The notes under the pieces were generated by a model, which was given only the letters and a program-made list of their open reading frames with translations, made no database searches and was not told the origin of the DNA. Of a stretch of 64,000 bases of DNA, positions 2,860 to 2,933 are shown one piece after another; within the stretch, counting starts at the first letter, position 1; each line of letters begins with the position of its first letter. Where the stretch lies: NCBI RefSeq assembly GCF_003334335.1, contig NZ_QOWQ01000021.1. One strand, 5' to 3'. The stretch comes from Escherichia coli. GTDB lineage: Bacteria > Pseudomonadota > Gammaproteobacteria > Enterobacterales > Enterobacteriaceae. A program made the position numbers and the translations under genes.

Positions 2860-2933
2860 TGGTGGCCCTTGCTGGATTTGAACCAGCGACCTGGCGATTA
2901 TAACTCGCTCTCATCATTTAGCTAAAATGGCTG
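2860..2933 (-). tRNA. ileZ: tRNA-Ile-like (ileZ type, anticodon UAU read by eye); acceptor and D arms imperfect, possibly degenerate
   Basis: Good T-arm (GCTGG-TTCAAAT-CCAGC) and CCA end; anticodon loop gTTATAa; 5' acceptor strand has two mismatches and the D stem is weak. Confidence 0.45.

Follow-up and report, generated by a model that had tools for sequence, protein, structure and literature searches.

The third tRNA-like element of the prophage tRNA cluster in this Escherichia coli sequence is, with high probability, a pseudogene of the lambdoid-phage gene ileZ. The element occupies nt. 2932–2860 on the minus strand of the window (i.e., the whole 64,000-nt stretch of contig NZ_QOWQ01000021.1 analyzed here) and comprises 73 nt including an encoded CCA, as delimited by Rfam and by alignments; its RNA sequence is AGCCAUUUUAGCUAAAUGAUGAGAGCGAGUUAUAAUCGCCAGGUCGCUGGUUCAAAUCCAGCAAGGGCCACCA. 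Intact ileZ encodes tRNA-Ile2, in which the host enzyme TilS converts the CAU anticodon to lysidine-AU, allowing it to read AUA codons. The relic, originally of the CAU type, presents TAT at the anticodon-equivalent position (nt. 2902–2900, minus strand) and retains an intact T arm (nt. 2887–2871), the discriminator A (nt. 2863), and the CCA (nt. 2862–2860). tRNA pseudogenes are a known kind of feature. Its resemblance to a tRNA is not a matter of chance, as 42/42 bases of its 3′ part equal intact ileZ and the gene order around it is the same. This exact sequence is also already known as a pseudo-tRNA in one GenBank phage record, that of phage vB_EcoS-611R1 (ON470586), where the identical sequence is labelled 'tRNA-Pseudo-TAT'. 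Within the literature collection searched, ileZ, argN, and argO returned nothing relevant.

The standard tRNA finders pass over the element or accept it marginally. Within the window, ARAGORN called tRNA-Arg(tct) at nt. 2685–2761 and tRNA-Arg(tcg) at nt. 2776–2852, and made no call at nt. 2932–2860 with either default or -ps settings; across 16 copies of the relic, it called none (0/16), and at an 80% threshold it forced a 73-nt 'tRNA-Ile(tat)' at the site. The Rfam tRNA model (RF00005) gave the relic 32.6 bits (E = 0.006 for the whole window and 8.6e-6 for a 91-nt stretch), marginally above the gathering score of 29. Its neighbors in the window, argO (tRNA-Arg(UCU), minus strand) and argN (tRNA-Arg(UCG), minus strand, beginning 7 nt past the relic CCA), are both intact and scored 68.1 and 56.0 bits, respectively. 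PGAP placed no feature at the site in 22/22 carrier complete E. coli genomes, including the genome of E. coli SCU-106, which has the identical sequence. The sequence-only reading of this region had regarded the third phage tRNA as degenerate and possibly a pseudo-tRNA, a suspicion upheld by the silence of ARAGORN and PGAP, the Rfam score, and the label in the phage record, and it had rightly taken both tRNA-Arg genes as sound, given their ARAGORN calls and Rfam scores. No high-scoring canonical tRNA with other boundaries emerged. The span proposed in that reading, nt. 2860–2933, included one surplus base at the 5′ end, which lies at nt. 2932. Further Rfam matches over the relic (Plastid-ycf2, YrlA, and CRISPR direct repeat) fell far under their gathering scores and were dismissed as noise. 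An assembly error was likewise rejected as the source of the relic, since the same sequence is found in five complete genomes, several IMG/VR contigs, and a phage isolate.

Alignment with ileZ of 933W, WGPS6, and P27 revealed nine differences, all of them in the 5′ part of the gene. Nearest the 5′ end, G1>A and C5>A are accompanied by an additional U in the U run ahead of A9; the D arm carries the substitutions C13>A, G15>A, and G19>A; and the anticodon loop has changed at C32>G and C34>U, the latter turning CAU into UAU. The relic has also lost 4 nt, corresponding to one GAGC repeat unit. Intact ileZ carries the sequence GA-GAGC-GAGC-GAC, which supplies the D-stem 3′ strand, position 26, and the anticodon-stem 5′ strand; the remnant of this repeat in the relic is GAGAGCGAG (nt. 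2912–2904, minus strand; alignments and cmscan). The exact position of the missing unit inside the repeat is ambiguous, and either the D-stem 3′ strand or the anticodon-stem 5′ strand is gone. This main lesion, located where the D stem meets the anticodon stem, was overlooked in the sequence-only reading, as was the original CAU anticodon. From A35 to the CCA, the relic is identical at 42/42 positions to ileZ of 933W, WGPS6, P27, and Evi, and the spacer to argN is also identical; the 5′ part aligns with 23 matches, 7 mismatches, and 1 gap, a count using free end gaps, such that the 4-nt deletion is not scored as a gap. Intact ileZ of 933W, WGPS6, P27, and Evi is a 76-nt tRNA with a CAU anticodon (68–72.5 bits), labelled Met by ARAGORN, which cannot tell Ile2 apart.

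The consequences for the cloverleaf are extensive. A seven-pair acceptor stem does not form in either register, with mismatches at C2·C71 and A4·G69 in the cmscan register, and at A1·C72 and A5·G68 plus a bulged U in the register of the 80% ARAGORN fold. A D stem and a 5-bp anticodon stem cannot form at once, as both need the shared GAGC: in cmscan, a 4-column gap accompanied three broken pairs of the anticodon stem, and in the fold forced from ARAGORN the D stem is down to ~1 Watson–Crick pair, next to a 4-bp anticodon stem with the loop GUUAUAA. The manual fold of the sequence-only reading (two acceptor mismatches, a weak D stem, a good T arm, a CCA, and the loop gTTATAa) is the same as this forced fold, and the worry raised there that the manual fold might be off was unfounded. 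The three D-arm substitutions strike known structural contacts in tRNA, namely the pairs 13-22, 15-48 (Levitt), and G19-C56 (elbow). The tertiary contacts of G18 G19 with the T loop and of R15 with Y48 are not preserved in the relic, where the D loop reads AAUGAUGA versus AGUGGUGA in intact ileZ, the changed base of G15>A faces C48, and G19 has also become A. The T arm (GCUGG-UUCAAAU-CCAGC), the discriminator A73, and the encoded CCA are all as expected of a tRNA. The relic reads UAU, and the C34 of the CAU anticodon, the target of TilS, is thus absent. E. coli TilS further requires C4-G69 and C5-G68 in tRNA-Ile2 (PMC1635315), and the relic departs from these determinants through C5>A in the ARAGORN register or through A4·G69 and U5·G68 in the cmscan register. 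The minimum-free-energy fold of the relic has no acceptor stem and reaches −18.2 kcal/mol, versus −33.5 kcal/mol for intact ileZ, and its folding energy is no better than that of shuffled sequences (z = −1.28). The best fold of intact ileZ (−33.5 kcal/mol) is not its cloverleaf (−29.7 kcal/mol), and what we took from folding was limited to whether an acceptor helix is present and to the total energy.

The relic lies in the late-regulatory region of a lambdoid prophage. Read along the minus strand, this region runs from Q through a promoter-like site and terminator-like hairpin, the convergent orf314, the tRNA cluster, a terminator-like hairpin, and STnc100 to a SASA-family esterase gene. The Q-like antiterminator (271 aa; nt. 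4138–4953, minus strand; PHROG 127, E = 4e-98) forms the upstream end of the relic-linked module, and its homologue is annotated as an antitermination protein in comparison loci L001 and L004–L008. Just upstream of the relic, a consensus scan identified the promoter-like sequence TTTTCA-18-TATCAT (nt. 2942–2971, minus strand; 9/12), a putative site known from this consensus match, which by alignment is positionally homologous to the 'pT putative tRNA promoter' annotated in 933W. The terminator-like hairpin and U run after argO (nt. 2644–2669, minus strand) match the terminator annotated upstream of stx in 933W. The annotated layout in 933W runs pR′, qut, terminators, pT, ileZ, argN, argO, terminator, and stx2AB; here and throughout, statements on the 933W and P27 loci rest on GenBank annotations. 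The relic is the first tRNA of a cluster downstream of Q and is followed by argN-argO and a terminator, in the order and spacing seen in 933W and WGPS6. Alongside this order, the 42/42 match of the 3′ part and the intermediate alleles connecting both forms identify it as ileZ, and the alignment with 933W ileZ and the cluster order agree with its earlier assignment to the ileZ position.

The convergent orf314 (314 aa; nt. 3057–4001, plus strand) points toward Q, antisense to the late transcript, and occurs in every relic-bearing locus inspected, linked to the 5′ half of the relic, Stx2e prophages included. Its only family match was to PHROG 7003 (unknown function), with no match in Pfam, PADLOC, or NCBIfam. 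Compared with the copy in STEC276, 28/34 differences fall at third codon positions and 6 amino-acid changes result; judged from this pattern, orf314 is under purifying selection. The gene is rich in rare codons (6 ATA, 9 AGA/AGG) and may serve an accessory role, expressed in lysogens. Between Q and orf314, a 136-nt gap (nt. 4006–4131, minus strand) holds a promoter-like TTGACT-18-TATCAT (nt. 4098–4069) and a strong terminator-like hairpin (nt. 4029–4006), which are candidates for pR′ and tR′. An Rfam match to 'Trp_leader' (26.2 bits, under the gathering score) overlaps this gap and is probably spurious.

Several other features were noted in the window. Directly downstream of the tRNA cluster lies STnc100 (nt. 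2341–2550, minus strand, 158.7 bits), and an AsxR/AgvB-type anti-sRNA at nt. 2285–2337 (plus strand) scored 63.0 bits, exactly the gathering score. The prophage is without stx genes, the next gene being the SASA-family esterase (nt. 213–2132, minus strand). The integrase end of the prophage lies at ~17–19 kb, and nt. ~19000–64000 of the window are E. coli chromosome, containing MicL (nt. 23902–24209, minus strand), C0465 (nt. 38200–38277, plus strand), and ES036 (nt. 19924–19966, plus strand). BLAST matches to the first 20 kb include cmoB among their annotated features. One comparison locus (L008; NZ_CP114132.1, 'plasmid pNJS001-2', 438,722 bp) has this prophage module as well as genes of chromosomal type, cmoB among them, and the record may represent either a piece of chromosome assigned wrongly or a replicon of unusual size.

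A series of alleles connects intact ileZ to the relic. With the Rfam tRNA model, intact ileZ (WGPS6, Evi) scores 72.5 bits and the A13 variant of P27 68.4 bits, and both are called as tRNAs. An allele with the 4-nt deletion only, present in seven IMG/VR contigs and in three complete E. coli genomes matching one queried flanking haplotype, scores 58.2 bits and is still called, by ARAGORN as a 72-nt tRNA with a collapsed D arm and by PGAP as tRNA-Ile. The allele combining the deletion with 5′ lesions while keeping CAU (the strain 10671 type; 10 genomes, the 438-kb 'plasmid' record, and four IMG/VR contigs) drops to 36.0 bits and is not called. The same is true of the window allele, which adds C32>G and C34>U (five genomes, phage 611R1, and three IMG/VR contigs; 32.6 bits), and of an allele found in a third downstream context, which shares this 5′ half and has G57 in the T loop (three IMG/VR contigs; 31.3 bits). 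In the Stx2e prophages (STEC276, STEC308; six genomes), the element gives no Rfam match and is not called, its 42-nt 3′ part having acquired 7 mismatches and 2 gaps; argN has been destroyed there as well, persisting as a relic of its own. Altogether, a relic variant is carried by 22 of 5,426 complete E. coli genomes, and a scan of species-representative genomes for the relic 5′ half yielded no match, leaving E. coli and its phages as the sources compared here.

The 4-nt deletion was seen in at least three flanking haplotypes, one of which is known both with and without it and is otherwise identical at 108/108 positions. This distribution fits recurrent slippage in a tandem repeat, and the GAGC-GAGC repeat in ileZ appears to be a recurrent slippage hot spot. 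The same distribution suggests that the deletion was the first inactivating hit; as IMG/VR yielded no copy combining the 5′ damage with an undeleted repeat, this order is argued from parsimony. In E. coli O111:H21 15A (L027, nt. 1519–1590) and IMG/VR loci L020–L026, the GAGC deletion is the sole ileZ lesion and PGAP annotates tRNA-Ile; this deletion-only ileZ is probably an over-annotated dead tRNA. In two of these loci (L022 and L025), it is followed by argO alone, with a ~100-nt gap at the place of argN, and the deletion and the loss of argN may co-occur there.

The distribution of lesions along the gene is uneven: of 77 aligned positions, the first 35 hold all nine and the remaining 42 are untouched (chance ~8e-4 if lesions are independent and uniform), a pattern that simple neutral decay does not predict. 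Carriers are near-identical to one another in the relic 5′ half and in the 130 nt preceding it. Compared with locus L010, for instance, the window is identical at 127/130 upstream nucleotides and at 30/31 of the 5′ half, and the downstream tRNA sets differ. In the loci inspected, the damaged 5′ half always lies behind the same 271-aa Q and 314-aa ORF and is followed by one of three downstream arrangements, namely argN-argO (the window); a relic argN, argO, and stx2e; or Arg(tct)-Gly(tcc). Base 57 of the T loop tracks the downstream set, with A57 accompanying argN-argO and G57 accompanying Arg-Gly, and G57 is also found in the intact Ile-Arg-Thr-Gly cluster of strain EC12. The simplest reading of these three contexts is a mosaic junction inside the relic, between about positions 36 and 57, with the 3′ part having presumably been renewed from intact donors when the downstream module was swapped. 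The conserved tRNA gene seems to serve as a joint for recombination, with the Q module on one side and a module of downstream tRNAs and cargo (the stx site in toxin phages) on the other.

The comparison with STEC276 adds a further asymmetry. Between the relic in the window (nt. 2860–2932) and its counterpart (L006, nt. 2527–2599), the first 36 nt show 0 changes and the last 37 nt differ at nine positions; at neutral sites, 12/130 upstream intergenic positions and 11/110 four-fold sites of orf314 differ. Some 3.6 changes would be expected in 36 nt, giving a Poisson P of ~0.03 in this one lineage comparison. The unchanged 5′ segment hints at constraint on the 5′ part of the relic, or else reflects chance or a mosaic origin.

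From the homology, lesions, allelic series, and mosaic linkage seen here, we infer an order of events, transcription and processing of the relic, and its lack of function. The first inactivating event was likely a slipped-strand deletion within the tandem GAGC-GAGC that removed one unit, after which the D and anticodon stems would compete for the same bases and the cloverleaf could not form. The eight other 5′ lesions would have followed, breaking pairs of the acceptor stem, the D-arm contacts 13-22, 15-48 (Levitt), and G19-C56 (elbow), and the C34 target of TilS. Lambdoid phages would recombine within the conserved ileZ, such that the 5′ half is inherited with Q-orf314 and the 3′ half is replaced together with the downstream tRNA set, and recombination inside the gene is likely why the 3′ part is identical to intact ileZ. 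Given the pT-homologous promoter-like site upstream, the relic is probably transcribed, forming the 5′ leader of an argN-argO precursor that would be discarded when RNase P matures argN. The relic RNA is not expected to be charged or to decode, and AUA decoding would be left to the host ileX and ileY. Codon usage fits the retention of argO and a dispensable ileZ, with 11.5 AGA+AGG per 1000 codons in the visible prophage genes versus 4.0 in the host part of the window (2.9x) and a modest 6.2 versus 4.6 for ATA (1.35x), in a small prophage sample (4,340 codons, early-region genes only).

The pseudogene reading has a counterpoint in the Rfam score above the gathering score and in the retained T arm, discriminator base, and encoded CCA. 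The same features could belong to a functional, unconventional tRNA-Ile(UAU) with a reduced D arm that reads AUA without TilS, in which UAU sits in a 7-nt loop on a 4-bp stem, next to a perfect T arm and a CCA, and whose deletion-only sister is still a tRNA according to ARAGORN and PGAP. We consider this extremely improbable, however, as two mismatches and a bulge disrupt the acceptor stem, the D stem has all but disappeared and G19 with it, position 32 is a purine, no compensatory changes were seen, and the sister alleles either retain CAU or decay until undetectable. D-arm-less tRNAs are not known to function in E. coli translation, and an unmodified UAU anticodon runs the risk of reading AUG too. 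An unusual tRNA with non-canonical pairs had been left as an option by the sequence-only reading, and the evidence supports a pseudo-tRNA instead. A different explanation of the intact 3′ part, which we regard as very unlikely, is that selection rather than recombination kept it as a processing or stability element of the argN-argO precursor. Such selection would account for 0/42 changes in the 3′ part versus nine lesions in the 5′ part, in a gene whose CCA is only 7 nt from argN. The 3′ part has, however, decayed in the Stx2e prophages (9/42), yet argO is intact and annotated as a tRNA there; A57 versus G57 varies with the downstream tRNA set, as recombination predicts; and RNase P recognizes the mature domain of argN, not upstream structure.

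A further possibility, unlikely in our estimation, is that the dead ileZ has been re-used as an internal promoter, which would drive argN-argO in lysogens from a start near nt. 2890, independent of the weakened upstream promoter. This speculative promoter (nt. 2897–2925, minus strand), read from the sequence, would consist of TTAGCT (nt. 2925–2920; tRNA positions 7–12), a 17-nt spacer, and AG-T-TATAAT, with the −10 hexamer TATAAT at nt. 2902–2897 and a G at −14 (nt. 2904). Through the 4-nt deletion, TTAGCT comes to lie 17 nt ahead of CATAAT in the anticodon loop; C34>U gives a perfect TATAAT and C32>G the G at −14, turning ACTCATAAT of the 10671 allele into AGTTATAAT in the window, a near-consensus extended −10; the motif exists only because of these three lesions. 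The sole two differences between the window and 10671 alleles thus fall at −14 and −12, both towards consensus, and the TTAT allele is present in all three downstream contexts. The 36-nt promoter core is also unchanged between the window and STEC276 while neutral neighbors differ by ~10%, and the pT homologue is weaker in the window lineage (TTTTCA-18-TATCAT, versus TTGCAG-17-TATTAT in 933W). On the other hand, the pattern was noticed after seeing the data, the conservation test is a single lineage comparison with P ~0.03, and 11/22 carrier genomes retain CATAAT. The −35 hexamer matches at 3/6 positions, leaving the site absent from the scan-tool output, and the base at −15 is A, not T. Promoter re-use would not conflict with the pseudogene status of the element as a tRNA and, if true, would offer a clean, small-scale case of a dead tRNA gene turned regulatory element.

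As a pseudogene, the relic alone matters little, being a decayed accessory tRNA in a prophage without stx whose host has its own AUA decoder. The by-products are modest and comprise a recurrent slippage deletion that annotation still passes as tRNA-Ile, an intragenic mosaic joint, and a possible promoter. Because RefSeq lists the deletion-only ileZ as a normal tRNA-Ile despite its collapsed D arm, tallies of the rare-codon tRNAs that phages supply in STEC prophages may be slightly inflated.

Among known systems, the relic is closest to ileZ of 933W, Stx2a_WGPS6, and phiP27, which holds the same place (first in ileZ-argN-argO, downstream of Q) and shares the 42-nt 3′ part and the 7-nt spacer; the −10 element upstream of the 933W-type ileZ is homologous to that of the relic. 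Relative to this ileZ, the relic differs by its nine 5′ lesions, its score of 32.6 versus 72.5 bits, and the fact that neither ARAGORN nor PGAP calls it. Phage vB_EcoS-611R1 shares the identical relic, the Q-orf314 module, and the downstream argN-argO, in a 21-kb phage sequence as opposed to the chromosomal prophage of the window. The deletion-only ileZ of O111:H21 15A and the IMG/VR loci has the same GAGC loss and 3′ part but, unlike the relic, an intact acceptor stem, D loop (G18 G19), and CAU. The argN relic of the Stx2e phage phiP27, STEC276, and STEC308 is likewise a cluster member that decayed in place beside intact neighbors, although there the central D/anticodon region is replaced and not shortened by 4 nt; in L006 and L007 (nt. 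~2606–2700) and in P27 (L018, nt. 2572–2672), the middle of argN is unrelated sequence, its ends are recognizable, and only argO is called. Finally, the host ileX and ileY are of the same tRNA-Ile2 type, with a body ~89% identical to the relic query, and appear as single-copy 'tRNA-Ile' matches in most genomes; unlike the relic, they are chromosomal and intact, and they presumably supply AUA decoding for this prophage.
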